From Tolypothrix carrinoi HA7290-LM1 (lineage in GTDB: Bacteria > Cyanobacteriota > Cyanobacteriia > Cyanobacteriales > Nostocaceae), in assembly GCA_019358935.1 (NCBI GenBank), contig JAHHIK010000160.1, forward strand, positions 1 through 13,465: DNA of 13,465 nucleotides, written 5' to 3'. The notes beneath the pieces were generated by a model, which was not told the DNA's origin, searched no databases, and worked only from the letters and a program-made list of their open reading frames with translations. Positions 1 to 13,465 of the stretch are shown piece by piece (positions within the stretch are counted from its first letter, which is position 1; every line of letters starts with the position of its first letter). A program made the translations under genes and the position numbers.

Positions 1-22
1 CTCATCGACGAGTATTAATTTA

Positions 23-499
23 TCAAGAACCTGATGCAGCTTTAGCAGTTCTACCTCTGATAGCTTTAAACCGTTCACCTAACTGTTCGGCAATAGTTTT
101 TAAGCCTGGAGTCTTCTTTGCAGCAGTCTTTACATAGTCATAAACAGTCAAACTGCTGGTCATGGCATCACTACCGACTGCTAATAGGGTATCATCTACT
201 TGTTCGGTGAGTTGCCGCATTGAGGTTAAAAGTTCGGTGAGTGTGCTGGTTAATTGATAATCTCGCACCAATTCCTCAACGTCAAAACTTGCGGGGAGAA
301 TGTCGCGGTTGGACTGAGCAGCGGCAACGCTATTATTGACAAAGGCTAGGCTTTTATCACCCATTTTTACCAACTTGCGTCGTTCTTCGGTAGTTAGGGT
401 AATCAAAAAGGGCAGCTTTTTCTGGACTGTCTGTAGTGCTGCTTTAATTTCTTGGATATCTTGTGGGGAAATGCTGGCGTTGACATTTTGATAAGCCAT
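23..499 (-). CDS. Conserved hypothetical protein, about 158 aa, predicted alpha-helical
   Basis: ORF 23..538; the likelier start is the ATG at 499 (MAYQNVNASISPQDIQEIK...). It has amphipathic helical patterning and resembles a hypothetical family I recognise from cyanobacteria and Bacteroidetes. No catalytic motif seen. Confidence 0.7.
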   Translation of the reverse strand: MAYQNVNASISPQDIQEIKAALQTVQKKLPFLITLTTEERRKLVKMGDKSLAFVNNSVAAAQSNRDILPASFDVEELVRDYQLTSTLTELLTSMRQLTEQVDDTLLAVGSDAMTSSLTVYDYVKTAAKKTPGLKTIAEQLGERFKAIRGRTAKAASGS

Positions 500-641
500 C
501 GTATAATTACCTTGGTGAGAGTATTGCTGTAGTAGCAATGTTTACTACGTTTATGATTCCCACAAAGTCATGCGATCGCACATTTTATTTAAATTTTTAC
601 ACCCAGGTCTGATTATCACTATTGAATCACGGTTGTCTATT

Positions 642-1094
642 TCATTCTTTGGTCTGCTTAATCATCCGTCGCAGCGCTGATTCTGATGGATATATACAAA
701 CTGACATCAATGCTTGCCGTTCGAGAATGCGATCGCCATTGTTAAAATCAAAGATACGTACAGTTACTTCGCCAATATCTGTTAAAGGCTCAATTACAGC
801 TTCATTTAAGCGGAAATGTTCTCCCCAAAAGTCTCGACGGGGGTTGAAAAAGCGCACGAGTTCACCAGTCTGCCAATTAATAGAGCCTAAATCGCTGCCT
901 TTTTGTAGATTACAATAAATACAGGCATAGCTCAAATTATCTGCCGTAGTGGAACCACTGTGTTTTACACTGATGATGTGGTCAACTTGAAAGCTTACGC
1001 CGTTTGTATGTGGAATTAGGCAGTATTCGCACAAGCAATCAGCGCGATCGCTAACTAAACGGCGAAGTTCTAAACTAACGTAAGGTCGAGACAC
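642..1094 (-). CDS. HNH endonuclease family protein
   Basis: GTG start; CEYC...VDHIISVKHSG.T...NL...CIYCN..KG is a classic HNH/zinc-binding motif, followed by FFNPRRDFWGEHF. Confidence 0.9.
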   Translation of the reverse strand: MSRPYVSLELRRLVSDRADCLCEYCLIPHTNGVSFQVDHIISVKHSGSTTADNLSYACIYCNLQKGSDLGSINWQTGELVRFFNPRRDFWGEHFRLNEAVIEPLTDIGEVTVRIFDFNNGDRILERQALMSVCIYPSESALRRMIKQTKE

Positions 1095-1103
1095 TTCTTA
1101 TAT

Positions 1104-1358
1104 TTACTCGGCTGTAATGTACTTATAAGCGCGTGCTTTTGCCAACCTCATTATATGCTCTAAGGTGAGGAACCGATCTAACTCTTTTTTTTCTTCTGGT
1201 GTCAGTTCTCCGGTTTGGTGCGCGTAAACCAAATCTTCTAAACGCTCCTGCGCTGCATGTGATAGTTTAAAATCTATAACACTTTGGGGTGTAGTTCCCG
1301 CAGCAATAAAGTCAATAATTTCGTCGTAGACTTTGGTTGTATTTATAGATGTGGTCAT
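1104..1358 (-). CDS. Small helical protein, putative antitoxin or partner of the HNH nuclease
   Basis: 84 aa (RLEDLV..HQTGELTPEEKKELDRF), ending 9 bp before the HNH start. The antitoxin role is inferred from this gene arrangement. Confidence 0.65.
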   Translation of the reverse strand: MTTSINTTKVYDEIIDFIAAGTTPQSVIDFKLSHAAQERLEDLVYAHQTGELTPEEKKELDRFLTLEHIMRLAKARAYKYITAE

Positions 1359-1383
1359 AATCCCTCTTTCATCGAATCAATAT

Positions 1384-1609
1384 TTATGCTACTTTAAATG
1401 TCTTTGCTAACGTTTGCGGTTCTGGTAGAGATGTACCGTCTTCTAACGATGACGAAATCAGCATTTCTAAAACTTCTTGAGCATTTTTAACTGCCTCCTC
1501 GTAAGTGTCTCCGTGGGTATGACAAAATTCTCCCCATTCAGGAAGGCTAACAACATAACAGTTATCTTCGCAACTACCATTGAATAATAATAGTGTAGTG
1601 AGAATTCAT
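1384..1609 (-). pseudogene. hicB: HicB-family antitoxin pseudogene (+1 frameshift)
   Basis: Reads MNSHYTIIIQW then TAG. Seven nt (TAGTTGC) separate TGG from the resumed frame EDNCYVVSLPEWGEFCHTHGDTYEEAVKNAQEVLEMLISSSLEDGTSLPEPQTLAKTFKVA*. Length is 226 nt (3n+1). The 3' half is close to hicB at 2482..2706. Not in the ORF track. Confidence 0.85.
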
Positions 1610-1723
1610 TCTTGTTCTTCCTCTTGAGCCTTTTTAATTTCCTCTAGCTTTTGAAGTGCATTATTAACGTCTTTTTCCTGGTAAGCTTTCGCATCATTCC
1701 CATCCTTACCAGATAAAGTTAAT
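1606..1723 (-). pseudogene. hicA: HicA-family toxin, 3' fragment
   Basis: LTLSGKDGNDAKAYQEKDVNNALQKLEE aligns with IIIAGKDGSDAKLYLEKQVNEALEELKK of the intact HicA, and has the same ATGA overlap with hicB. The N-terminus of ORF 1606..1833 is repeat-derived. Confidence 0.85.
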
Positions 1724-1724
1724 A

Positions 1725-1900
1725 AATTCAAATGTAGGGGAGCCAGTGCGTTGCGCGGGTTACCCGCGTTGAAGCACCTGGCGTGAGGTTCCCTCCGTTG
1801 TAGCAACTGGCGTTGTGTTGTCGCGCAGCGCAACGCACCATCAAGAATTCAAGGTGGGTGCGATCTTCCTACGGCATAACACACCCTACCGACTTGAATT
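1725..1900. repeat. Inverted pair of GTAGGG-type REP-like palindromes with a nested short dispersed repeat
   Basis: Outer inverted repeat AATTCAA(1725)/TTGAATT(1900). Left unit GTAGGG(1734-1739)...TGTGTTGTCGCGCAGCGCAACGCACC(1814-1839) is interrupted by GAGCCAGTGCG...ACTGGCGT (1740-1813). Right unit is GGTGCG...ACACCCTAC (1857-1889). Confidence 0.75.
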
Positions 1901-1915
1901 GTCTGCACTTGAGCC

Positions 1916-2158
1916 TTAAGAATCTTGCTTTCTTTTGTTTGCTTGCTCGATACGCTGCTTAATTGCTTGTTCTGCTATACGAATATTTTCTTCTATTGGT
2001 GTACCGTCTTCAGTCGCCATTGGTCCATACCATGTTGCTTCAGAGTCGGGAGGATTGCGACGACTAAACAACACACGAATAGCCTCATCATCATCTCGAT
2101 GTGCCAGTATATAAGCGGTTAATTCTTTACTAGTCATCGCTTCAAAGTCCGGTTTCAT
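1916..2158 (-). CDS. DUF6887-like small protein (putative antitoxin-like)
   Basis: MKPDFEAMTSKELTAYILAHRDDDEA matches a common cyanobacterial family from memory. It overlaps the upstream gene by 17 nt and has a paralog at 6448..6732. Confidence 0.7.
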   Translation of the reverse strand: MKPDFEAMTSKELTAYILAHRDDDEAIRVLFSRRNPPDSEATWYGPMATEDGTPIEENIRIAEQAIKQRIEQANKRKQDS

Positions 2159-2381
2159 TTAAAAACCTCCAGAGTCCACTAGGGGGTACGATAATTTGAA
2201 TATTCTCGCCTGCCAAAATATACACATCTCTAGTTTGAATTTCAAAACGAAACAGGTGGATATCTTTGTAAGTGTTTGATAACATTTGGCAGACTCGCAC
2301 ACAGGCTTGTGCTTGTTCGTTGGTTGGGTAAATAGCCTTTTCCTCAATTGTGACATAGATAATATAAGCCCCAAATGGCAA
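2142..2381 (-). CDS. DUF6888-like small protein; true start uncertain, possibly near 2330
   Basis: PTNEQAQACVRVCQMLSNTYKDIHLFRFEIQTRDVYILAGENIQIIVPPSGLWRFL resembles the usual upstream partner of DUF6887. A purine-rich GAGGAAAAGG lies just before the PTNEQ codons, but no ATG follows it. Confidence 0.6.
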   Translation of the reverse strand: MPFGAYIIYVTIEEKAIYPTNEQAQACVRVCQMLSNTYKDIHLFRFEIQTRDVYILAGENIQIIVPPSGLWRFLNETGL

Positions 2382-2397
2382 CGTGTCAGAAACCTAA

Positions 2398-2441
2398 TGC
2401 TTGAGAACAAGCTTTTGAATTCTCTAATTTTCAAAGGGCAT
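2398..2441 (-). pseudogene. hicA: HicA-family toxin, degenerate 5' fragment
   Basis: ATGCCCTTTGAAAATTAGAGAATTCAAAAGCTTGTTCTCAAGCA versus intact hicA ATGCCCAAGAAAATTAGAGAACTCAAAAGCTTGTTGCTGCAAGCA. Confidence 0.8.
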
Positions 2442-2481
2442 ATCCCCGTATTCTTCAACTTTCTCGGCTCTCCTGGCTTAT

Positions 2482-2706
2482 TTATGCTACTTTAAATGTC
2501 TTTCCTAGCGTTTCCGGTTCTGGTAGCGGTTCGCTGTCTGACAAAGATGACGAAATCAACATTTCTAAAACTTCTTGAGCATTCTTAACAGCTTCTTCGT
2601 AAGTATCTCCGTGGGTGCAAGGCTGCATTATATTAGTAAACTCAGGAAGCAAAACTACATAACATTCGTCTGATTCTGACCATTTAATCACAATTGTATA
2701 TTTCAT
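2482..2706 (-). CDS. hicB: Type II TA antitoxin, HicB family (short form, no DNA-binding domain)
   Basis: Y.IVIKWS..DECYVV.LPEF....CTHGDTYEEAVKNAQEVLE motif; ATGA overlap with hicA. Confidence 0.9.
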   Translation of the reverse strand: MKYTIVIKWSESDECYVVLLPEFTNIMQPCTHGDTYEEAVKNAQEVLEMLISSSLSDSEPLPEPETLGKTFKVA

Positions 2707-2924
2707 TCTTCTGTTTCCTCTTCTTCCATTTTCTTTAGTTCTTCAAGTGCTTCGTTGACTTGTTTTTCTAAATACAGTTTGGCATCACTACCATCTTTGC
2801 CAGCGATGATGATAGCTTTAGGCAATTGTGGATGTATCCATTTACTATGGCTTCCTTTTGCAGGTTTACAAATAAACCCTGCTTGCAGCAACAAGCTTTT
2901 GAGTTCTCTAATTTTCTTGGGCAT
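2703..2924 (-). CDS. hicA: Type II TA toxin, HicA family mRNA interferase
   Basis: KIRELKSLLLQAGF....AKGSHSKWIHP includes the catalytic GSH motif. Confidence 0.9.
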   Translation of the reverse strand: MPKKIRELKSLLLQAGFICKPAKGSHSKWIHPQLPKAIIIAGKDGSDAKLYLEKQVNEALEELKKMEEEETEE

Positions 2925-2951
2925 ATAATCAGCTTACATTCTCACATCCGA

Positions 2952-5900
2952 TTATTTTGCCCCTTCTAACTCCTTCAACTTTTTCTGTGCAAACTCCCGC
3001 ACTTCCTCATCTGCGTCATTTGCTGCTTTGTCGCGCAATAGTGGTAAAGTCTGGGGATGTTGAGGATATTGCTCGATAATTGCCTTAAGTGCTGTTTTTC
3101 GAGGGTTATTTTCCAAGTTGTACTTGCGTTTAAACGGGTCATTAACAGCGCAATTGTAGAATACTTCAAACATCCCAGGGTCATCTTTAAAGTTGCTGGC
3201 TAAAGCTTCGACTGCTACACGTCGCACATCCGAATCATTATTAGCGATCGCCCGTTCTTTTAACCATCGCAGAGTGTCCGGGTCATCTTTAAAGTTGCTG
3301 GCTAAAGCTTCGACTGCTGCACGTCGCACATACCATTCATTATCAGCGATCGCCTGCTCTTTTAACCATCGTAGAGTGTCCGGGTCATCTTTAAAGTTGC
3401 TGGCTAAAGCTTCGACTGCTGCATATCGCACATCCGAATCATTATTAGCGATCGCCCGTTCTTTTAACCATCGCAGAGTGTCCGGGTCATCTTTAAAGTT
3501 GCTGACTAAAGCTTCAACTGCTACACGTCGCACATTCGTATTATTATCAGCGATCGCCCGTTTTAACAATCCCAGAATGTCCGGGTCATCTTTAAAGTTG
3601 CTGACTAAAGCTTTAACTGCTGCACGTCGCACATCCCAATCATTATCAGCGATCGCCCGTTCTTTTAACAATGGCAGAGTGTCCGGGTCATCTTTAAAGT
3701 TGCTGACTAAAGCTTCAACTGCTGCACGTCGCACAAAATAATCATTATCAGCGATCGCCCGCTCTTCTAACCAGGGGAGAGTGTCCGGGTCATCTTTAAA
3801 GTTGCTGGCTAAAGCTTTAACTGCTGCATATTGCACATCCCCATCATTATCAGCGATCGCCCGCTCTTTTAACAATGGCAGAGTGTCCGGGTCATCTTTG
3901 AAATTGCTGGCTAAAGCTTGGACTGCTGCACGTCGCACATCCCCATGATTATCAGCGATCGCCCGCTCTTTGAGCCAGGGGAGGGTGTCGGGGTCATCTT
4001 TAAAGTTGCTGGCTAAAGCTTGGACTGCTGCACGTTGCACATCCCCATCATAATCAGCGATCGCCCGCTCTTTTAACAATGGTAGAGTGTCCGGGTCATC
4101 TTTAAAGTTGCTGACTAATGCTTCGACTGCTGCACGTCGTACATACCATTCATAATCAGCGATCGCCCGCTCTTTTAACAATGGTAGAGTGTCCGGGTCA
4201 TCTTTAAAGTTGCTGACTAAAGCTTCAACTGCTGCACGTCGCACATCCGAATCATTATCAGCGATCGCCCGGTCTTTGATCTGCTTAACTAATTCATTAG
4301 CCGTTGAAACAATTACCGAGCGATTCCTCACTTCTACAAGACATTTAGCAGCTAAAGACAAAATGCTAAACTTTTTCTTTTCACCATCTAACTTTATTAA
4401 ATACTGAATAATCTCACCCGCAAATTTAGGCTCAATCATTCCTACAATTAGCTGCAACACCTCATGCCAAGTTTCATCTTGCCAGTGTTTACCAAAAACT
4501 TCTGTCTTCAATTCCTCAATAGTCAGCGATCGCGTCTTCTCAAACTGCCAAACAAACTCCCAAGCACAGAAATATTCTAAAAATGTCCGATGCACAAAGG
4601 CATAATAATCTGCACCGAGGAAACACAACATAAAATTGCGAGTCCGCAGTTGATTAATCATCACCCTCGCAACTTCTCTCGGTTGACTAACTATATCTTT
4701 CAGAGAATCCGTTAAAATATTCTCTAAATCACCCGCACTAATCAAATTGCCTGCTAAACCTTTCTCACTGGTTTGCATATAACAAGCAACCTGACGCAGC
4801 ATCGCTTGCTTATCTTTATAATCAATCGTTTTTGGATCTAATCTTTTATCTTCTATTAAAGCGCGTTCCACATCCCATTGATGCAATAACACCCGCGATG
4901 CTTGATTATAAAGTTCCGCTCTATCTCGCGGCAATTCTTGATTTCTATTAAGTATTGCCATCATCGTCAGCAGCAGAGGATTACCCGCTAATTCGGCAAT
5001 AGATTTTGAAGCTTCTATTCCTCTTTGCAATCGCTCACGTTTTCTAAGTTTATCCGCTTCATCGTTAAATGTTAACTCATGCCAGCGGTAAATAAAATCC
5101 TGAATTTGTTCAGCTTCTAAATCTTGCAATATGAAATGCCGAAACTCAGCATCTCGCAATCGTTGCGCTTTGTAGCCAATGACGCGAGATGTTACAATCA
5201 CCTGCACATTCGGATACTCGTTAGTGAAGCGATGAATATCGTTAATCACATCTTCTCGCTTACCCGGATAGAAGACTTCATCTAAACCATCAAACATCAC
5301 TAAGGCTCTACCAGCTTTTAGCTGTTCGTGTAGTTCATGTTGATTCAAATGATAAATTGCACCGCTACATTTATGGAAAAATTCCAGAAAATTATGACAC
5401 TCCTTATCCTCTCGTCGTCGCATATAAGTGCGTAACTCAATTAGCAAAGGTATCGGCAGTGAGATAACATTATCTAGGGGTGTTTGTGCCCAATTCAAAG
5501 CGAGAAATTGCAACAATGTAGACTTACCCGAACCCGGATCGCCCAAAATGACGATATATTTATAAGTCCGTTTTTCATTTACAATATCTAATACTGAACG
5601 TATGGCTTGTTCTAAATAAAGTTGTTTGTAACGTTTTAATTCTTCCTCTTGAACTTCTGCCTCTAATTGGTTGCTTTCTCGCAGTCGTCGCAGATGTTCT
5701 TTAGGCAGTTCGTGTTGTGGTAATATTTGATTAGCTTCCCGGACATTTTGGGCGATAAAGATGCGCCATAACTTTAGTTCGTTATATGCGTAACCTGTAG
5801 TATCCAAATTATCTAACTTCAGATTACCATATAGCTCGCCAATTGCTTCTTGATAGCGTTCTAAATCAAATTGAGGAATAATCCCGGCTATCTCGGTTGT

Positions 5901-6416
5901 GTTTTGTGCGGTTTTTTCTAGATTCTGGGAATTAAGAATCTCTCGCAGTTGATCAACTTCGAGAATTATCTCTTTAACCTTTTGCAGATACTTTTTGCCT
6001 ATTGGTTTCCAGTTAAAATCATCTGATGAATTAAGTTGATACCAAATTTGTTGTAATTTACTTGTGTCTATTGCTTGACAGTTATGCTTAAAGGCACTTC
6101 CTAAAATTTGTTTGACTTCTTGATTCTTGAGAAAGTGCTTTATCGGTTGCGTATACTTTTTGATGTCATCTTGCGATCCATTATATTCTAAATCCTGCTG
6201 CATCAGTTGCACAAATTCTGTCAGTGCCATAACTTCAGCTTTCTGAAGCGGTTCTTGCTTAAAGGGTGCGGTTATGGCATTATTTAAGATATTCTTGAAA
6301 AAATCTTTAGCGTAGTCTTTGACTAAATCTTTGAGAAATTCTTCGCTGATAATGGTTTTGACGAGAAATCCAAATGTTTTTGTAGTTATCCAGGTGGTGA
6401 ACCATTCAACTATCAT
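2952..6416 (-). CDS. NACHT (STAND) NTPase with C-terminal HEAT-like (PBS lyase type) repeats; bacterial NLR-like protein
   Basis: Walker A GDPGSGKST, Walker B LVMFDGLDE, VIVTSR sensor, GNPLLL, winged-helix FVHRTFLEYF; about 185-aa helical N-terminal region; eleven 34-aa repeats DxDxxVRxAAVxALxSNFKDDPDTLxxLKERAIA. Confidence 0.92.
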   Translation of the reverse strand: MIVEWFTTWITTKTFGFLVKTIISEEFLKDLVKDYAKDFFKNILNNAITAPFKQEPLQKAEVMALTEFVQLMQQDLEYNGSQDDIKKYTQPIKHFLKNQEVKQILGSAFKHNCQAIDTSKLQQIWYQLNSSDDFNWKPIGKKYLQKVKEIILEVDQLREILNSQNLEKTAQNTTEIAGIIPQFDLERYQEAIGELYGNLKLDNLDTTGYAYNELKLWRIFIAQNVREANQILPQHELPKEHLRRLRESNQLEAEVQEEELKRYKQLYLEQAIRSVLDIVNEKRTYKYIVILGDPGSGKSTLLQFLALNWAQTPLDNVISLPIPLLIELRTYMRRREDKECHNFLEFFHKCSGAIYHLNQHELHEQLKAGRALVMFDGLDEVFYPGKREDVINDIHRFTNEYPNVQVIVTSRVIGYKAQRLRDAEFRHFILQDLEAEQIQDFIYRWHELTFNDEADKLRKRERLQRGIEASKSIAELAGNPLLLTMMAILNRNQELPRDRAELYNQASRVLLHQWDVERALIEDKRLDPKTIDYKDKQAMLRQVACYMQTSEKGLAGNLISAGDLENILTDSLKDIVSQPREVARVMINQLRTRNFMLCFLGADYYAFVHRTFLEYFCAWEFVWQFEKTRSLTIEELKTEVFGKHWQDETWHEVLQLIVGMIEPKFAGEIIQYLIKLDGEKKKFSILSLAAKCLVEVRNRSVIVSTANELVKQIKDRAIADNDSDVRRAAVEALVSNFKDDPDTLPLLKERAIADYEWYVRRAAVEALVSNFKDDPDTLPLLKERAIADYDGDVQRAAVQALASNFKDDPDTLPWLKERAIADNHGDVRRAAVQALASNFKDDPDTLPLLKERAIADNDGDVQYAAVKALASNFKDDPDTLPWLEERAIADNDYFVRRAAVEALVSNFKDDPDTLPLLKERAIADNDWDVRRAAVKALVSNFKDDPDILGLLKRAIADNNTNVRRVAVEALVSNFKDDPDTLRWLKERAIANNDSDVRYAAVEALASNFKDDPDTLRWLKEQAIADNEWYVRRAAVEALASNFKDDPDTLRWLKERAIANNDSDVRRVAVEALASNFKDDPGMFEVFYNCAVNDPFKRKYNLENNPRKTALKAIIEQYPQHPQTLPLLRDKAANDADEEVREFAQKKLKELEGAK
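3178..4271 (-). repeat. Intragenic tandem array of 11 x 102 bp (one 99-bp unit), each with one HIP1 site
   Basis: GCGATCGC begins at 3244, 3346, 3448, 3550, 3649, 3751, 3853, 3955, 4057, 4159 and 4261. Spacing is 102 bp except one 99-bp step (LLKRAIA, one codon missing). Confidence 0.97.
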
Positions 6417-6447
6417 GTTGGTGTCTGCTTAGATAATGTTTCGGAAT

Positions 6448-6732
6448 TTACGGCTGATTTAAGAAATGTCTCACGCAAAGGCGCAAAGACGCAAAGGAAG
6501 AGGGTAGAGTTATAGGTCTTGCTGGATGCGCTATCGCGATCGCTTCCTCTACTATCCGCTTATTTTCTTCTATCGGTGTACCATCTTCAGTAAACATCGA
6601 CGGATATATAATTGCTTCTGAGTCTGGAGTACGACGATTAAACAGAATTTCTAGCGCTTCTACATCATCCCGATTAGCAAGCACATACGCTCTCAATTCT
6701 TTTGTGGACATTTCTGCAAAATTAAACTTCAT
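6448..6732 (-). pseudogene. DUF6887-like paralog, 3' end replaced by unrelated and repeat sequence; partner gene absent
   Basis: Colinear with 1916..2158 up to EDGTPIEENKRIVEEAI. Similarity stops at a HIP1 site (6536-6543) and the frame runs on into the CTTTGCG repeat (SSFASLRLCVR). Confidence 0.7.
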
Positions 6733-6769
6733 CTCTCTTCCTTCGTGCTCTTCGCGTCTTTGCGGTTCG
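6470..6769. repeat. Inverted pair of CGCAAAG-type short repeats bracketing the DUF6887-like fragment
   Basis: Left 6470-6502 CTCACGCAAAGGCGCAAAGACGCAAAGGAAGAG. Right 6735-6769, reverse complement CGAACCGCAAAGACGCGAAGAGCACGAAGGAAGAG. Confidence 0.7.
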
Positions 6770-7122
6770 TAAACAAATATACCCCTTCACAACCCAGACG
6801 CGTTCCGCAAGGTTGCGGTACTCCGCATCGCCCCAATTGCATAAAACTAAGAAATGTTTATAAATATATAGATATTAGATATAGGATTTGGCACTACTGA
6901 TGGTTTATACTCACCCACAGGGTTGCAAATCGCCAATCATCAGATATATATAGGAGGCAAAACCACATCATCCTTTACCCAACGCTCTCACAACCATCAT
7001 CATGAGAGGTAACTAAAGGCAAGCTTGATGTCAAACGAATAATTTTTGCTTCAATGGCGACGCATAAATATTAAACTTAAAAGTCTTGTGCAGCGATATC
7101 TCTAGCTATAAAATCAGCAATC

Positions 7123-8703
7123 ATGTCTAAGGTTCTAGTCTCCGATCCAATTGACCAAGCTGGGATTGACATTCTCTCCCAAGTTGCCACTGTCGATGTT
7201 AAAACAAATCTCAAACCAGCAGAACTAATAGAAATCATTGGTGAATATGACGCGCTGATGATTCGTTCTGGCACTCAAGTTACCAAAGAAATCATTCAAG
7301 CCGGCACGCAATTAAAAATTATCGGTCGTGCTGGTGTCGGTGTCGATAATGTCGATGTTCCCGCAGCCACCCGCCAAGGTATAGTCGTTGTTAACTCTCC
7401 TGAGGGTAACACGATCGCCGCTGCCGAACACGCGCTAGCAATGATGTTATCTTTATCTCGCTACATTCCCGATGCCAATGCTTCTGTAAAACGCAATGAG
7501 TGGGATCGTAAAACTTTTGTTGGCGCAGAAGTATACAAAAAAACTCTCGGTATTGTCGGTTTAGGCAAAATCGGTTCTCATGTAGCTGCTGTTGCTAGAG
7601 CAATGGGAATGCGATTGTTAGCTTTTGACCCTTTCATTTCCACAGAACGAGCCGAGCAAATAGGCTGTCAATTAGTCGATTTGGATCTTCTATTGCAGCA
7701 AGCAGATTATATCACGTTACACATCCCGAAAACTCCGGAAACGACACATTTAATCAACGCCGAGAGATTGGCGAAGATGAAACCCAATGCCAGGATAATT
7801 AACTGCGCTCGTGGTGGGATAATTGATGAAGACGCTTTAGCTGCTGCGCTGAAAGAAGGTAAAATAGCAGGGGCAGCTTTGGATGTTTACGAATCAGAAC
7901 CTCTAAAAGAATCTCAACTGCGAGCGATCGGTAAAGAAGTTATCCTCACTCCTCATTTAGGCGCATCCACTACAGAAGCACAAGTAAATGTAGCGATCGA
8001 TGTAGCCGAACAAATCCGCGATGTGCTTTTAGGACTACCCGCACGTTCAGCAGTGAACATTCCCGGACTTAATCCCGATGTCTTGGAAGAACTTAAACCC
8101 TACATGCAGCTAGCAGAAACCTTAGGTAGACTAGTCGGACAACTCGCCGGCGGACGAGTAGAATTACTGAACGTGCGGTTACAAGGCGAACTCGCAACCA
8201 ACAAAAGTCAGCCTTTAGTTGTCGCTGCCCTCAAAGGACTACTTTACCAAGCTCTACGCGAACGTGTAAACTACGTTAATGCCAGCATCGAAGCCAAAGA
8301 ACGCGGAATTCGTGTCATTGAAACGCGGGATGCTTCAGTTAAAGACTATGCCGGTTCGCTGCATCTCGAAGCTACAGGTTCTTTAGGTACTCATTCTGTA
8401 ACCGGCGCTTTGTTAGGTGACGGAGAAATCTACCTTACCAATATTGATGGGTTCCCGATTAGCGTCCCCCCCAGCCAATACATGGTATTCACCTTACACC
8501 GCGACATGCCGGGAATTATCGGCAAACTCGGTTCCCTACTCGGCAGTTTTAATGTCAATATTGCCAGTATGCAAGTAGGCAGAAAAATCGTTCGTGGTGA
8601 TGCTGTGATGACACTCAGCATTGATGACCCCTTACCCGATGGCATTTTGACGGAAATCATCAAAGTGCCGGGAATTAGGGACGCATACACGGTAACACTT
8701 TAA
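7123..8703 (+). CDS. serA: D-3-phosphoglycerate dehydrogenase
   Basis: 526 aa; IIGRAGVGVDNVD, Rossmann GIVGLGKIG, INCARGGIIDE, TPHLGAST, and a C-terminal ACT domain (HRDMPGIIG). Confidence 0.98.
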   Translation: MSKVLVSDPIDQAGIDILSQVATVDVKTNLKPAELIEIIGEYDALMIRSGTQVTKEIIQAGTQLKIIGRAGVGVDNVDVPAATRQGIVVVNSPEGNTIAAAEHALAMMLSLSRYIPDANASVKRNEWDRKTFVGAEVYKKTLGIVGLGKIGSHVAAVARAMGMRLLAFDPFISTERAEQIGCQLVDLDLLLQQADYITLHIPKTPETTHLINAERLAKMKPNARIINCARGGIIDEDALAAALKEGKIAGAALDVYESEPLKESQLRAIGKEVILTPHLGASTTEAQVNVAIDVAEQIRDVLLGLPARSAVNIPGLNPDVLEELKPYMQLAETLGRLVGQLAGGRVELLNVRLQGELATNKSQPLVVAALKGLLYQALRERVNYVNASIEAKERGIRVIETRDASVKDYAGSLHLEATGSLGTHSVTGALLGDGEIYLTNIDGFPISVPPSQYMVFTLHRDMPGIIGKLGSLLGSFNVNIASMQVGRKIVRGDAVMTLSIDDPLPDGILTEIIKVPGIRDAYTVTL

Positions 8704-8933
8704 AGAGTTAGGAGTTACGAGTAGAGTTAGGAGTTAGGAGTTAAGAGTGAGGAATGAAGAGTTAAAAATTAATAGTAAAGAATTTTTTATTTTTAACTCC
8801 TAACTCCTAACTTCTAACTCCTAACTCCTCACTCCCCAACGCCAGTCGCTACAAACTCCTCCACCCCCGCAACGCGCTGGCTCCTCCCCACTCGCAACTC
8901 CTAACTCCTCACTCCTAACTCCAAACTCCTAAC
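8704..8933. repeat. Heptamer short tandem repeats (GAGTTAG)n then (AACTCCT)n in inverted arrangement, with an embedded dispersed repeat at about 8838-8884
   Basis: Direct reading. The two blocks are complementary and could form a long hairpin. The embedded AACGCCAGTCGCTACAA...CGCAACGCGCTGGCTCC is a reverse-orientation relative of 1740-1813. Confidence 0.9.
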
Positions 8934-8941
8934 TTTTTCTT

Positions 8942-9862
8942 GTGGCAAACACCTGGTGGGAACTACAAATTCTGTGTGAACCAGACCTAGAAGAATCTAT
9001 CTTTTGGCGTTTGGAAAATTTCGGCTGTCGTGGTACAGCGAGTGAAACAAAAGCAAATTCCTGTTTAGTGCGGGGTTATTTGCCGCAATTTCAAGCACAG
9101 TTACTCGATTTGGCAGCGCTTTCATTATGGCTGCGTCAAGATGCTTTGTGTGTCGGATTGTCTGCACCGACTTTGCATTGGCAGATAATTGATGAGGAAG
9201 ATTGGTCAAGTAGCTGGAAACAACATTGGCAACCTCAAGAAATAGGCGATCGCTTTCTCATCAACCCCGCTTGGCTACCTCTACCACAATCAGGCGATCG
9301 GCTGGTGATTAAATTAGACCCAGGTGTTGCTTTTGGCACAGGCAACCATGCCACAACTCAGTTGTGTTTAGAATCATTAGAAATGCGTTTTGCCCAAGTA
9401 CCGCCATCTTTCGCAAATACAGACGCGCAACAAAACCTTGTGGTAATTGCCGATATCGGCTGCGGTTCTGGTATCCTTTCGATAGGGGCATTGCTTCTGG
9501 GAGCAAAGAAAGCTTATGCAGTAGATACCGACCCTTTAGCAGTACAATCAACTAAGAGCAATCGCATCCTCAACGATATTAATGCAGAAAAGCTGGTAAC
9601 AGCAGAGGGAAGCGTAGACGTTTTAGCAAAACTGCTAGAAAAGCCCGTTGATGGAATCGTCTGCAATATTTTGGCTGATGTGATTATTCAACTAGTACCG
9701 CAAATGAGTGCGATCGCTAAATCTACCACTTGGGGTATCTTCAGTGGTATTTTATTAGAGCAATCGAAATCTGTTGCTGATGCTTTAGAAAAAAACGGTT
9801 GGGTAGTTGCTACTTTGTGGCGTCGTAAAGAATGGTGTTGTTTGAATGTGCGGCGATCGTAA
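8942..9862 (+). CDS. prmA: 50S ribosomal protein L11 methyltransferase
   Basis: [54 protein letters not shown] start. Confidence 0.97.
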
Positions 9863-10219
9863 CTCTCAAGGAACAATTTTTGCCACAATGATAGACCATG
9901 ACAGACTCTTCAAAGAACTCCTCTCTAACTTTTTCTGTGAATTTATCGAGCTATTTTTCCCCACCATCAGCACATACTGGGAAAGGGAATCTATAGAATT
10001 TTTACCCCAGGAAATATTTACCGATGTCACCGAGGGAGAGAAAAAAATTCTCGATATCGTCGTCAAAGCCAAATTTAGGAATCAGGATACTGTATTTATC
10101 ATCCACACCGAACACCAATCCTACTCCCAAGCAGGTTTTGAGCGACGAATGTTTGCATACTTCGCTCGTTTACATGAAAAATATGCTCTCCCCATTTATC
10201 CCATCGTCATTTATTCCCA

Positions 10220-11004
10220 GGCGTTGCTGAACCAAAATATGAATCAAGCGATCGCCTTAAGCTCAGTGGCGCTACGCGCCTTTACTCGCCACTGAGCCAT
10301 ACTTAAGATAATGTATTACTAAACGAATTGAATGTTTAAGCATTTCCTCGGATGCGCGAGTAACAAAAACTTTTACGATGTAGTCGAGCAAGATAATGTC
10401 TTAAACGACTATTCTCTCCCTCCACTCTTGTCATATATGTTTTACTAACGATGTGATCTTCATTGTTGATAAAACAAGGATAAACAGGATAACCATCGGT
10501 GACGTAAAAATAAGACTGCCAACATCTTATTATCAACCACAAATGTTTAAAAGTTTTTGAACTTCTGTCGCCTAAGACCCAAGCTATAATTCCTGGAACG
10601 CTTTGATTTACCGCTGTCCACAGCCAAATCTTGTTTTTTTTGAGCCAATAAAAGTTTCTAGTTCATCGATTTCTGTTACTTCCGGTATTTCACTTCTGTA
10701 AGGTGTATCTGGTAAAGTGCTAGCCACTTGCTTCACCCAATTTATAACAGTAGTATGATGTACTTTTTTAACTCTTTCTATCGCCCGGAACCCAGAACCA
10801 TTGACATACATTTCTAGGCATTCACTTTTAATATCTTCCGTGTATCCTTTTTGAGCATAAGATTCGCTCTCACTGACGTTTACAGTTGACACATATGTAG
10901 TTTTGTTTACCACGTTGCCGCCCATTCTTACGAATGTGAGTAGATTCACACCTTGGACATTACAAGCGCGATCGCCCATTATCATATTTCTATTCTGCAA
11001 CGCC
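10220..11004 (-). mobile_element. IS1-family insertion sequence, 785 bp, with 8-bp target site duplication TATTCCCA
   Basis: Terminal inverted repeats GGCGTTGCTGAACCAAAATATGA and (reverse complement of the right end) GGCGTTGCAGAATAGAAATATGA. TATTCCCA occurs at 10212-10219 and 11005-11012. Confidence 0.95.
10272..10965 (-). pseudogene. IS1-family transposase (InsA/InsB), inactivated
   Basis: Zinc ribbon CPRC...CVNC, HTH GFRAIERVKKVHHTTVINW, DELETF, A8C slippery site (T run 10634-10641), TDG and VEGENSRLRHYLARLHRK. Lesions: TTG TAA at the start, a stop/frameshift near 10870 and a frameshift near 10355. Confidence 0.9.
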
Positions 11005-11353
11005 TATTCCCACGACTCCCCGCAAGCACCAGAACCGAATTGCTATCGCATCGATTTTCCCAACAAGAAAATTCTGGAATTTAACTACGAAGTTATTCAG
11101 TTAAATCAATTACAATGGCAAGCCTTTGTAAATCAGCGAAATCCCTTAGCTAGTGCATTAATGTCGAAAATGCGGATGGATGTTCAAGAACGTCCTATAG
11201 TTAAGCTGATCTCATTACAATTACTTGCGAGTTTGGGACTAAATCCAGCACAAATGCAATTAATATCAGGATTTATTGATACCTATCTCAAGTTAAACCC
11301 CGAAGAGAAAATACGCTTTGAAGCAGAACTTGCTACGATTGAACCAAGACAGC

Positions 11354-11367
11354 AGGAGGATGTTATG
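11354..11367 (+). promoter_or_regulatory. Putative internal ribosome-binding site and in-frame ATG within the Rpn gene
   Basis: AGGAGG (11354-11359), 5-nt spacer, ATG at 11365. Confidence 0.6.
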
Positions 11368-11649
11368 CAAATAGTCACCAGTTGGATGGAAGAAGGTATC
11401 GAACAAGGTATCGAACGGGGTATCGAACAAGGAAGAAAGCAAGGAGAATTAGCTTTGCTTAACCGTCAACTTAACCGTCGTTTTGGTTCGCTGTCTCCTC
11501 AACTGCAAGAAATAATTGATAATTTGCCAATTCCACAGTTGGAGGAGTTGGGTGAAGCGTTGCTAGATTTTACCACTATTGACGATTTGTCAGCTTGGTT
11601 TGAAGGTAAGTGAGAGCGCACAATTGAACCAAGACAGCAGAAGGATGTT

Positions 11650-11898
11650 ATGCAAATAGTCACCAGTTGGATGGAAGAAGGTATCGAACGAGGTATCGAA
11701 CGAGGTATCGAACAAGGAAGAAAGCAAGGAGAATTAGCTTTGCTTAACCGTCTACTTAACCGTCGTTTTGGTTCGCTGTCTCCTCAACTGCAAGAAAGAA
11801 TTGATAATTTGCCAATTGCACAATTGGAAGAGTTGGGTGAAGCGTTGCTAGATTTTACCACTATTGACGATTTGTCAGCTTGGTTTGAAGGTAAGTAA
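11650..11898 (+). CDS. Stand-alone DUF4351 domain protein (RpnS-like), 82 aa
   Basis: Open frame with AGAAGG-N5-ATG; differs from the upstream C-terminal 82 aa at 4 residues. Confidence 0.7.
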   Translation: MQIVTSWMEEGIERGIERGIEQGRKQGELALLNRLLNRRFGSLSPQLQERIDNLPIAQLEELGEALLDFTTIDDLSAWFEGK

Positions 11899-11906
11899 GA
11901 GCGCAC

Positions 11907-12062
11907 AATCCCAAATCTTGTAGGGTGCTGTTAGCGAAGCATAACGCACCATTGATATTATTTTTATCGCTCGCCTGAAGGTGCGTGACGGCAAATTTGA
12001 TTATCTCGTTACGGTTCATAATTTATCGCAGCCGTCACACACTCTACAAATCTTTGGGGATT
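11907..12062. repeat. Inverted pair of GTAG-type REP-like palindromes between convergent genes (possible bidirectional terminator)
   Basis: GTAGGGTGCTGTTA...TAACGCACC (11920-11950) and GGTGCGTGACGGC...GCCGTCACACACTCTAC (11980-12047), with outer AATCCCAAA/TTTGGGGATT complementarity. Confidence 0.75.
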
Positions 12063-12078
12063 GCAAAAAAAGGAGTCC

Positions 12079-12174
12079 TCAAAGATATAAGGCAATACGA
12101 AAACCAATATCGAAGTAGAGAGTGTCGCGCTCTGCCCTAAAGGTGAAGACGCGAAACGCGGAACGGCAGAAGTC
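12079..12174 (-). other. Putative DGR variable region (VR)
   Basis: GAC TTC TGC CGT TCC GCG TTT CGC GTC TTC ACC TTT AGG GCA GAG CGC GAC ACT CTC TAC TTC GAT ATT GGT TTT CGT. Every codon in the variable stretches ends in C or T, as expected for diversified AAC/AAT codons. Confidence 0.65.
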
Positions 12175-13290
12175 AAATGTTCCCCCTGGTATCTCTACCA
12201 TTTCCAAGCTGACACCATTCCCCAAATCTTCAGTAAAGTATTTCGCGTCTAAATTCCTGCGATTAATAATATTTCCCCTCGCATCTACCGTCACAGTTTC
12301 AAAATTAAAGGTTTGTAATCTTAATTCTTTTCCTTTTATCGCTGTAAATATCCTTTCACCAACAAAAGCTAAACCTAGACCAGCAACCATCCATTGCAAA
12401 CCTTGAATTACTTTGCGTCGTGGTAATAGATTGGGTTGTGCTTGCGACTTCGGATATATTGGGGGTGCTGCTAAAGACGCGATCGCATCCAATGCATCAA
12501 ACGCACTTTGATATCTGTCGCTAAAGTTGTATCGCACCATCTTTGTTAAAACATCAGCCATGCTTTCGCTGATATTTGCCCAGTTACGCCAAATTACCTC
12601 ACCATTTCTTGGGTCTTTCGGTAACTCGTGGGGTTGTACACCTGTCAAAGCATATATTCCCAACATCCCAATTGCATAAATATCACTACAAAGTTTTGGC
12701 TGTCCGCTAGCTTGTTCGCTGGGCATATAGCCAACTGTCCCAATCGCCACTGATGGGATTGTTTGTCCTTGTGCATTTACCGTCAATGTACCAATTTCTT
12801 TAACTGCACCAAAGTCAATTACAACAATTTTGCCGTCTTTGTAACGACGCATTAAGTTTGCTGGCTTTATGTCGCGGTGAATGATATTTTTATTATGGAT
12901 AACTGTAAAAACTTCGAGTATTTCCTGTAATAGCTGGGTAACTTCTGCTTCGCTCGATTGTTTTCCAGGATATATTTCTCGTCTTAAATCTTGACCATCA
13001 ATAAATTCTTGAACTAGATAAAACTCGCCATTTTCCTCGAAGTGAGCAAATAATTTAGGTATTTGGCTGCATTCATTCCCCAATCGATATAAAACTTCTG
13101 CTTCGCTTTCAAATAGCCTTTTAGCGATTTGTAATACTTTTGGGTTGGGGTTGCGTTTGAGGTGCTTAACTACGCACTGGGGATAGTTGGGTAAATCGAT
13201 GTCTTCGGCTAAATATGTGTCCCCAAATGCACCGCTTGCCAGAGTTTTGGTGATTTTGTATCGGTTGCGAAGTATTTGACCGATATGCAT
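12079..13290 (-). CDS. Hanks-type Ser/Thr kinase fused to an internally deleted FGE-sulfatase (CLec-fold) domain
   Basis: LASGAFGDTY, VVK, HRDIKPAN, DFG and GTVGYMPSEQ; hydrophobic segment WMVAGLGLAFVG. The FGE N-terminus (FTEDLGNGVSLEMVEIPGGTF) is joined directly to the FGE C-terminus (CRSAFR...IGFR). Confidence 0.88.
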   Translation of the reverse strand: MHIGQILRNRYKITKTLASGAFGDTYLAEDIDLPNYPQCVVKHLKRNPNPKVLQIAKRLFESEAEVLYRLGNECSQIPKLFAHFEENGEFYLVQEFIDGQDLRREIYPGKQSSEAEVTQLLQEILEVFTVIHNKNIIHRDIKPANLMRRYKDGKIVVIDFGAVKEIGTLTVNAQGQTIPSVAIGTVGYMPSEQASGQPKLCSDIYAIGMLGIYALTGVQPHELPKDPRNGEVIWRNWANISESMADVLTKMVRYNFSDRYQSAFDALDAIASLAAPPIYPKSQAQPNLLPRRKVIQGLQWMVAGLGLAFVGERIFTAIKGKELRLQTFNFETVTVDARGNIINRRNLDAKYFTEDLGNGVSLEMVEIPGGTFDFCRSAFRVFTFRAERDTLYFDIGFRIALYL

Positions 13291-13348
13291 AGATTTACTT
13301 AAGTTGCGTGTTGATTGGTTTTATTTTGCCATATTCGCCTTGAAGAAA

Positions 13349-13465
13349 GGCAGAGGGCAGGAGGCAGCTATGCTGAAGGAGCAATCGGATGGGGATTCAA
13401 ACCCCAACCGATTGAATCCACCGTGTAGACGGTGGGGTTTTATACCCAGTTGGCTCCAGCCAGAA
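13349..13465. repeat. GGCAGA(G/A)-type short repeats followed by a multi-hairpin palindromic element, cut by the window end
   Basis: CAATCGG.TGGGG...CCCCA.CCGATTG (13382-13414) and CCACCGT-GTAG-ACGGTGG (13418-13435). Confidence 0.6.

Follow-up and report, generated by a model that had tools for sequence, protein, structure and literature searches.

We analyzed a window of 13,465 nucleotides (the whole stretch under study: contig JAHHIK010000160.1 of assembly GCA_019358935.1, positions 1 to 13,465 of the forward strand) from the cyanobacterium Tolypothrix carrinoi HA7290-LM1. Its minus strand carries a gene for a NOD-like receptor (NLR)-like protein in which a NACHT NTPase core is followed by a tandem array of HEAT units of the alphaRep type, and it is the variable codons of this array and its turnover between alleles that are described here. 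The features of the gene are as follows.

2952..6416, minus strand: NLR-like gene, 1154 aa, with NNH2, NACHT, a helical region, 11 HEAT units and a C-terminal cap (C-cap), from the open reading frame (ORF) and Pfam
5799..6338, minus strand: NNH2 N-terminal helical domain, aa 27-206, presumed effector or adaptor (Pfam PF22734)
5076..5558, minus strand: NACHT NTPase core, aa 287-447 (Pfam NACHT, above cut-off)
3178..4271, minus strand: array of 11 alphaRep-type HEAT units, in frame within ORF 2952-6416
4271, 4169, 4067, 3965, 3863, 3761, 3659, 3560, 3458, 3356 and 3254, minus strand: starts of the units
2955..3176, minus strand: C-cap, two degenerate HEAT units (secondary structure of the model)

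The NLR architecture proposed in the initial annotation was borne out by Pfam matches to NNH2 (E-value 5e-57), NACHT (7.5e-13) and HEAT_2 (1e-66), and by intact NACHT motifs, namely a Walker A motif (aa 292-299) and a Walker B signature, D-G-L-D-E (aa 376-380). NNH2 is preceded by an N-terminal helix that is hydrophobic or amphipathic as judged by its hydrophobic moment, and is all-helical in the predicted model (pLDDT 71.9). The AlphaFold2 model of the protein has a mean pLDDT of 70.6, with most blocks of the array and cap at 78-94 and low confidence in the NACHT part; when the full-length fold was searched, all matches were generic HEAT solenoids apart from one alphaRep. An N-cap unit present in homologues is missing from the protein of the window. 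The gene is single-copy, and blastn found its 102-bp unit nowhere else in the assembly than in the 11 units.

TRF reported a 102-bp period at 3178-4277, with 10.8 copies and 88% matches. Ten units are 34 aa long and unit 7 has 33 aa. The mean pairwise DNA identity of the nine full units is 0.885, the mean protein identity is 0.77, and the longest exact tract common to two units in register is 79 nt. The array is therefore real, but the description of its 11 units as nearly identical in DNA was somewhat strong for an identity of about 88%. Identity to the consensus (0.845, taken as an approximated Psim) and the best 100-aa self-match (89%) both pass the published repeat-similarity thresholds (Psim 0.7; 85% over 100 aa). 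When the protein was split into units, the two residues before V-R/Q read SD, WY, GD, GD, GD, YF, WD, TN, SD, WY and SD, exactly as had been claimed, and were followed by RR, QR, QY or RY and then by E, Q or K. The reported recurrence of motifs in distant units was also seen, units 2 and 10 sharing EWY and units 9 and 11 sharing NNDSD. The variable unit positions are 7, 8, 9, 12, 13 and 16, plus 30/31, so that the code is wider than a dipeptide; six-residue codes are distinct in 10 of the 11 units.

The unit order of the window array is taken solely from the assembly. Contigs of public run X1, which is possibly the source sample and so not independent, had no other letters in any of the eight listed pieces (8/8). 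Piece 3383-3502 was the sole one with raised depth, which fits the k-mer multiplicity of the assembled array. A collapsed extra copy of the array, suggested by this depth, was rejected because k-mer multiplicity accounts for it.

Alignment of the units with phmmer to solved alphaRep proteins (PDB 6ft5, 4zv6 and 3ltm; best E-value 1e-19) placed unit positions 8, 9, 12, 13, 16 and 20 at alphaRep positions 18, 19, 22, 23, 26 and 30. In alphaRep proteins these six positions are the ones randomised, and they make up the concave binding face (PMC3754942). The natural and the artificial repeats thus belong to the same subfamily and vary in the same register; however, alphaRep is an artificial library of 31-aa repeats, whereas the natural unit has 34 aa and an NTPase as fusion partner and varies also at the residue preceding position 18. 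Each 34-aa unit consists of a conserved two-helix framework whose five to six variable residues lie where the second helix starts (position 8 in the AlphaFold2 model) and down one face of it. Within-protein variability, determined for the 55 of 120 proteins with at least four units and an identity of at least 0.65, was 0.71 at position 8, 0.67 at 9, 0.63 at 12, 0.62 at 7, 0.56 at 16, 0.46 at 31 and 0.41 at 13, and 0.01 and 0.00 at framework positions 10 and 18. In an alignment of 36 close homologues (mean NACHT identity 96%) hypervariable loops occupied the same register of both caps, N-cap and C-cap, in the latter ahead of its first long helix. By this register the variable codons are predicted to sit at the concave binding-face positions of alphaRep. 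The proposed identity of the variable residues with the variable alphaRep surface is in agreement with both the phmmer register and the placement of the second helix in the model.

Six alphaRep positions were set in advance for the analysis of selection. By counting, 41 of 53 arrays had a nonsynonymous divergence at these positions above the synonymous divergence of the framework. A fixed-class codon model was then applied to 40 of the 53; the other 13, with fewer than five clean units or DNA identity below 0.75, were left out. Omega at the variable positions was above 1 in 38 of the 40 arrays (p<0.05 in 34; median 3.0), and framework omega had a median of 0.56 and was below 1 in 31 of the 40; the arrays are related to each other and hence are not independent trials. 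Neutral simulations produced 5/70 false positives without recombination and 7/70 with it. Pooled omega from 36 arrays, the window array being excluded, was 8.4 at position 8, 3.6 at positions 9 and 12, 2.0 at position 16 and 1.5 at position 7, and was also raised at positions 31 (4.7) and 1 (2.0). Positions 8, 9, 12 and 16 map to the concave face by the alphaRep alignment; 31 and 1 do not. At positions 7, 9, 12, 13 and 16 codons differ far more at the first and second bases than at the third. In the window array amino-acid change was greater at the alphaRep set than at six positions chosen at random (p=0.0035). Overall, the variable codons are under positive selection across the family, and the anticipated excess of nonsynonymous change is present, the window array alone giving p values from 0.06 to 1e-4.

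Homologues were found in 27 of the 61 genomes searched (8/10 congeners, 21/36 in the family and 5/24 in other families of the order). A protein search in which 8000 candidates were scored gave at least 2518 homologues at E<=1e-100, of which 120 were retrieved for comparison. Named close homologues are Nostocales-type and come mostly from filamentous cyanobacteria; Nostoc sp. PCC 7120 has a family member, all1888. In 90 complete homologues from 1 to 14 units per array were detected, counts that are lower bounds because the unit pattern skips some units. Among 140 proteins there were 947 complete pairs with a NACHT identity of at least 93%. The same unit code was found in 0/144 pairs at 97-99% NACHT identity, 0/528 at 95-97% and 0/262 at 93-95%, and the mean shared fraction of unit codes was 0.02, 0.01 and 0.00, respectively. 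Arrays therefore turn over almost completely between alleles with 95-99% identical NACHT regions. The expectation that arrays differ among orthologs thus held at the family level, both in unit number (1-14) and in the absence of identical arrays (0/672 pairs at 95-99% NACHT identity). Three loci of congeners had 3 (L033), 5 (L032) and 14 (L052) detected units, and none of the unit codes of the window was found in the five congener loci listed.

Particular pairs indicate how alleles come to differ. P0108 and P0120 have identical N-termini and 99.3% identical NACHT regions, yet share no unit codes and are only 77% identical in the C-cap; because the two match in the N-terminus and NACHT and differ in the array and cap, exchange of the whole sensor is indicated. 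One-unit differences were seen in P0090/P0134 and in P0051/P0131, and in P0077/P0081 the variable patch of unit 1 is replaced, a change below the level of the unit. Assembly error could mimic the differences in these three pairs. In two congeners (L035 and L057) an 82-84% identical NACHT region is joined to a different, degenerate repeat type, which is sensor exchange within the genus.

Other loci showed more drastic changes. In genome G006 an in-frame open copy (L052:7059-9431), next to serA and so syntenic with the window, lacks NNH2 and most of NACHT and has at least 14 units; the same genome has a full 5-unit copy of the NLR at another site. The truncated copy is possibly a decoy or a reservoir of repeats. 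In genome G003 (L036:8229-9989) the gene has lost NACHT and part of the C-cap; the junction of the NACHT deletion falls at the HIP1 site of unit 1. Arrays ended at contig breaks or N gaps in 27 of 102 loci, and 15 of 71 resolved loci were interrupted, some perhaps by assembly error. Plasmid relatives were found in seven records, one of them near full length; a single-protein query confirmed no relatives on viral contigs.

The units also bear marks of exchange within genes. The nearest neighbour of a unit by framework sequence lay in the same gene in 49% of cases against 1.4% expected (575 units, 72 genes); the units of the window are as close to those of the nearest congener as to one another. 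No single tree fits 28 of the 55 informative site pairs in the window array. This incompatibility did not decay with distance in the window array (r=0.04, p=0.38), and therefore recurrent mutation is inseparable from conversion by this test. Units are homogenised within genes and have a reticulate history. The repeat shuffling that had been proposed thus stands in part: by itself it is insufficient, as new codons that are positively selected and exchange of whole sensors between alleles contribute too. None of the contrary outcomes named beforehand (invariant arrays in orthologs, scattered or buried variable residues, no nonsynonymous excess) appeared, burial being judged without direct measurement.

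The pattern could be explained by point mutation under selection together with recombination between units and between alleles. Mutagenesis of the repeats by a diversity-generating retroelement (DGR) is exceedingly improbable. Positions 9 and 12 do have mostly NNT codons, as would arise from an AAT template, and DGR-diversified NACHT sensors have been proposed for FGS-type proteins. However, blastn of the assembly returned only the 11 units and no template copy, the variation at positions 13 and 16 is among NNA codons, whose third A is fixed, and adenines are the least polymorphic base at fourfold sites (3.5% against 8-18% for T, G and C). A DGR origin was therefore rejected for this assembly, there being neither a template nor adenine-specific variation. 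Donor cassettes or paralogues with shared units were also sought in the genome and none was found; the four NACHT matches were distant (26-28%).

A HIP1 octamer lies in frame at codons 2-4 of all 11 units, two codons ahead of the variable patch.

3244, 3346, 3448, 3550, 3649, 3751, 3853, 3955, 4057, 4159 and 4261: HIP1 octamers, one per unit

The frequency of HIP1 in the genome is about 1 per kb, and the octamer is known to raise recombination-dependent transformation in Synechococcus (bioRxiv 10.1101/2024.09.10.611283), so that it may speed shuffling in the lineage of the window. Only 3 of 73 arrays have HIP1 in at least half of their units. HIP1 was rejected on this count as a general shuffling mechanism, and diversification in the family therefore does not need it.

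At the other end of the protein, a full NNH2 N-terminus was found in 82 of 150 distant representatives. From the 150, 31 relatives were scanned for their N-termini (29 with another or unclear N-terminus and two more), and in 18 of the 31 another domain precedes the same NACHT: SIR2 (6), DUF4062 (6), caspase (3), CHAT, trypsin or metallophosphoesterase. DUF4062 is, we assume, TIR-like. NNH2 would thus sit in an effector slot, since other domains replace it before the same NACHT; four of the six swapped domain types are listed as effectors of bNACHT proteins (Kibby et al., bioRxiv 10.1101/2022.07.19.500537). Foldseek gave no match to the NNH2 fold at E<=0.001, and the best VIA alignment had Z 5.9 and rmsd 4.0 over 110 aligned residues; Foldseek, VIA-align and the Atlas returned NNH-family clusters only. 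The four-helix-bundle membrane effectors with which NNH2 was compared are presumably those of the MLKL/HeLo/Bell-like kind. In the NNH2 region of homologues (alignment A2), two distinct N-terminal types stand on 96% identical NACHT cores, the mean identity of the N-region being 84%, which suggests from sequence that the effector end is exchanged as well. In several loci the gene with the repeats has, as its immediate upstream neighbour, a sensor-less NNH2-NACHT paralogue (about 740 aa; 40-45% identity), a layout resembling that of helper and sensor; L051 has an apparent rearranged version of this pair.

L049:6532-8757, L050:6470-8689, L054:7605-9806 and L047:6147-8346 (split in L047): sensor-less paralogue

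The NLR gene heads a co-directional run of genes of the toxin-antitoxin (TA) type, consisting of HicA/HicB, DUF6887, the HNH pair and a 158-aa protein.

7123-8703, plus strand: serA
6448..6732, minus strand: DUF6887 gene directly upstream of the NLR gene, adjoining the divergent serA
2703..2924, minus strand: HicA-type toxin gene, starting about 30 bp past the NLR stop (Pfam PF07927, 2.7e-10)
2482..2706, minus strand: HicB-like antitoxin gene (Pfam PF15919, 3.5e-8)
1916..2381, minus strand: TA-like pair of a DUF6888-like ORF (2142-2381) and a DUF6887 ORF (1916-2158; DUF6887 by Pfam)
642..1358, minus strand: 84-aa protein (1104-1358) and HNH nuclease (642-1094; Pfam HNH)
23..499, minus strand: 158-aa unannotated protein at the end of the cassette, present in 34/74 homologous loci

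The likeness of the 79-aa DUF6888-like ORF was judged by eye only, to a neighbour-family member named DUF6888 by Pfam. The 84-aa protein and the HNH nuclease recur downstream of homologues in 33/74 and 24/74 loci, respectively. The 158-aa protein belongs to no Pfam, PADLOC or NCBIfam family and falls into unnamed Atlas clusters from Cyanobacteriota and Bacteroidota; in homologous loci it often precedes an ORF with short-period repeats. At 1441-1833 (minus strand) there is a decayed second hicAB-like copy, with a HicA-like tail in a 75-aa ORF and a hicB that appears broken by eye. Upstream neighbours of the NLR vary among lineages. Farther along the window, heptamer tandem repeats in both orientations occupy 8703-8934 between serA and prmA, and an Rpn/DUF4351-type gene at 9846-11909 is split by IS-like ORFs near 10339-11000 and has a 285-bp tandem duplication at its 3′ end. 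A Ser/Thr kinase gene (Pfam) lies at 12079-13290 on the minus strand; its tail, as we take it, resembles the start of an FGE-sulfatase domain and is cut short. FGE-sulfatase domains are DGR targets in cyanobacteria.

Comparison with known systems places the protein among the bNACHTs (bacterial NACHT, NLR-related proteins of the antigen-receptor type), which likewise combine an N-terminal domain, NACHT and superstructure repeats and for which HEAT is listed as a sensor type (Kibby et al.). The window protein has the tripartite layout and a NACHT with Walker A and the D[GAS]hDE signature, and by these features it is a bNACHT. The same work names NNH domains and describes cyanobacteria as rich in bNACHTs; the difference is that its available text stresses effector variation, with similar sensors among close NACHTs, and describes no homogenised, positively selected, reshuffled HEAT arrays. 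Similar repeats, repeat-number polymorphism, positive selection at a few positions of a concave binding face and a NACHT switch are known from fungal NLRs of high internal conservation, both HET-D/HET-E (HNWD) and TPR/ANK/HEAT types, and one Podospora NACHT gene carries conserved HEAT repeats (PMC4986451, PMC13449251, PMC12222747). By analogy the window NLR appears to evolve like these, and polymorphism of repeat number and order among alleles, as in HET-E, was found at the family level, in alleles of other species. It differs in being bacterial, in having HEAT instead of WD40 repeats and NNH2 instead of HET/HeLo effectors, and in being single-copy, so that no exchange between paralogues is possible within the genome. 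Membership of HNWD (HET-D/E proper) was rejected, as NNH2 and HEAT replace the HET effector and WD40.

In fungal NLRs the regime itself is already known. For bacterial NLRs with internally conserved WD/TPR repeats it has been suggested, in that these repeats 'might similarly' undergo rapid diversification (Dyrka et al., bioRxiv 10.1101/2020.01.06.895854). That suggestion came without selection or allele tests in the available text, where 'HEAT' occurs 0 times in the main part, and a cross-domain survey of repeats took in ANK, TPR, WD40 and LRR, not HEAT, in the accessible portion of PMC13449251. Avs proteins are also STANDs with helical-repeat sensors and are activated by phage proteins, but they recognise conserved phage folds, and the available text describes no homogenised hypervariable array (bioRxiv 10.64898/2026.01.04.697583). 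In the literature searched we found no paper on this NLR family or on all1888, with the proviso that the supplementary tables of Kibby et al. may list the architecture, and none testing this regime on a bacterial HEAT NLR.

We consider that the gene probably encodes a cyanobacterial NACHT-class NLR whose HEAT solenoid serves as a receptor of variable specificity. In such a receptor, residues for new contacts would arise by point mutation, unequal crossing-over and gene conversion among the 102-bp units would propagate, rearrange and amplify them, and whole sensors would be placed on a conserved NACHT through exchange among strains. The ligand would be a protein, most likely one from an invader such as phage or a host protein altered by an invader, and its binding would lead to nucleotide exchange and oligomerisation; this would cluster NNH2, and the cell would be killed or arrested and the filament protected. 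The effector step is the weakest link of the proposed mechanism. At the evolutionary level the interpretation is largely supported; on the side of ligand and phenotype, we infer an immune role from the replacement of the effector by SIR2, caspase or trypsin within the same NACHT clade and from the downstream TA cluster. Genes of the TA type were found no farther than 3 kb downstream in 48 of the 74 loci for which enough sequence was present, against 62 of 20000 random windows of this genome (0.3%).

A number of observations weigh against this interpretation. At 99% NACHT identity and above, 9 of 13 pairs have identical codes, several of them being the same gene or re-assemblies, and P0091, P0096 and P0099 (99.6-99.8% NACHT identity), which lie outside the pair filter, also carry identical codes. 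The protein set is made up of representatives of 90% clusters and so is biased toward different alleles, and arrays of this kind can be put in the wrong order or joined into chimeras during short-read assembly (PMC12222747). The window array alone is borderline with the a-priori set and nine full units (omega 1.80, p=0.06), and a counting bootstrap against synonymous change gave p=0.19. It reached significance only when all 11 units were used over codons 1-26 (omega 4.8, p=1e-4) or with a changed, family-derived site set (nine units; omega 2.1, p=0.02). The elevated positions 31 and 1 lie on the first helix, 31 aligning to a core leucine of alphaRep, so that some of the variable sites fall outside the concave face. 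NNH2 had no match among known death-effector folds by Foldseek and VIA-align, and PADLOC returned no matching system and no Avs match. The contrast in TA-type genes between homologous loci and random windows is circular, the families having been defined from the same, related loci.

An anti-invader receptor is the most likely role, and its main rival is allorecognition. The same variable receptor may have a non-viral ligand, either a polymorphic self/non-self determinant exchanged between fusing or contacting filaments or a protein of a symbiont, predator or competitor, which we regard as unlikely. Fungal NLRs with this regime (HET-D/HET-E) are defined by allorecognition, the named homologues are mostly from filamentous cyanobacteria, and the family is commoner in the window's own family than in others of the order. 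A hypervariable face is also not obviously needed if, as for Avs, conserved phage folds are recognised (bioRxiv 10.64898/2026.01.04.697583). On the other hand, no linked, co-varying partner gene was found in the 102 loci, bacterial NACHT proteins tested so far are antiphage (Kibby et al.), and the swapped effector domains are those of antiphage systems.

It is much less probable that the pattern reflects neutral repeat dynamics, in which homogenising recombination and relaxed drift of the surface are combined with short-read misassembly that inflates differences. The frequent ending of arrays at contig breaks or N gaps, the borderline result for the window array, variable-site omega below 1 in 2 of 40 arrays and framework omega of 1 or above in 9 of 40 would all be in keeping with it. 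However, relaxation should give omega near 1 instead of the median of 3.0, which null simulations do not reproduce; the excess of change at first and second codon bases argues in the same direction, and misassembly is unable to generate unit codes that are absent from the other allele. An equally improbable explanation is a non-immune signalling STAND protein, a developmental or stress scaffold with HEAT repeats binding host proteins. Pfam finds no catalytic effector domain and PADLOC no system, and several homologue records are named 'signal transduction protein', but patchy presence (27/61), breakage (15/71), positive selection and wholesale replacement of sensors do not fit a conserved host partner.

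If the receptor of variable specificity is accepted, a further reading may be put forward tentatively, though it is rather doubtful: the family could be a natural alphaRep-like library of filamentous cyanobacteria. A single-gene receptor independent of reverse transcriptase would be recombined (by way of HIP1 in this lineage, in polyploid cells) at a rate sufficient to yield differing specificities within one population or filament, and would provide anticipatory immunity or allorecognition via a helical death domain. Characterised bacterial STAND receptors recognise conserved phage proteins, whereas the family described here looks built for the opposite, a fast-changing specificity. Within the literature searched, a regime so far tested only in fungal NLRs is now seen in bacteria. 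With a specificity code of five to six residues per 34-aa module, at least 2518 homologues and a member, all1888, in a model strain, the question is testable, and natural, selected binding faces of the alphaRep type are of interest for binder design.

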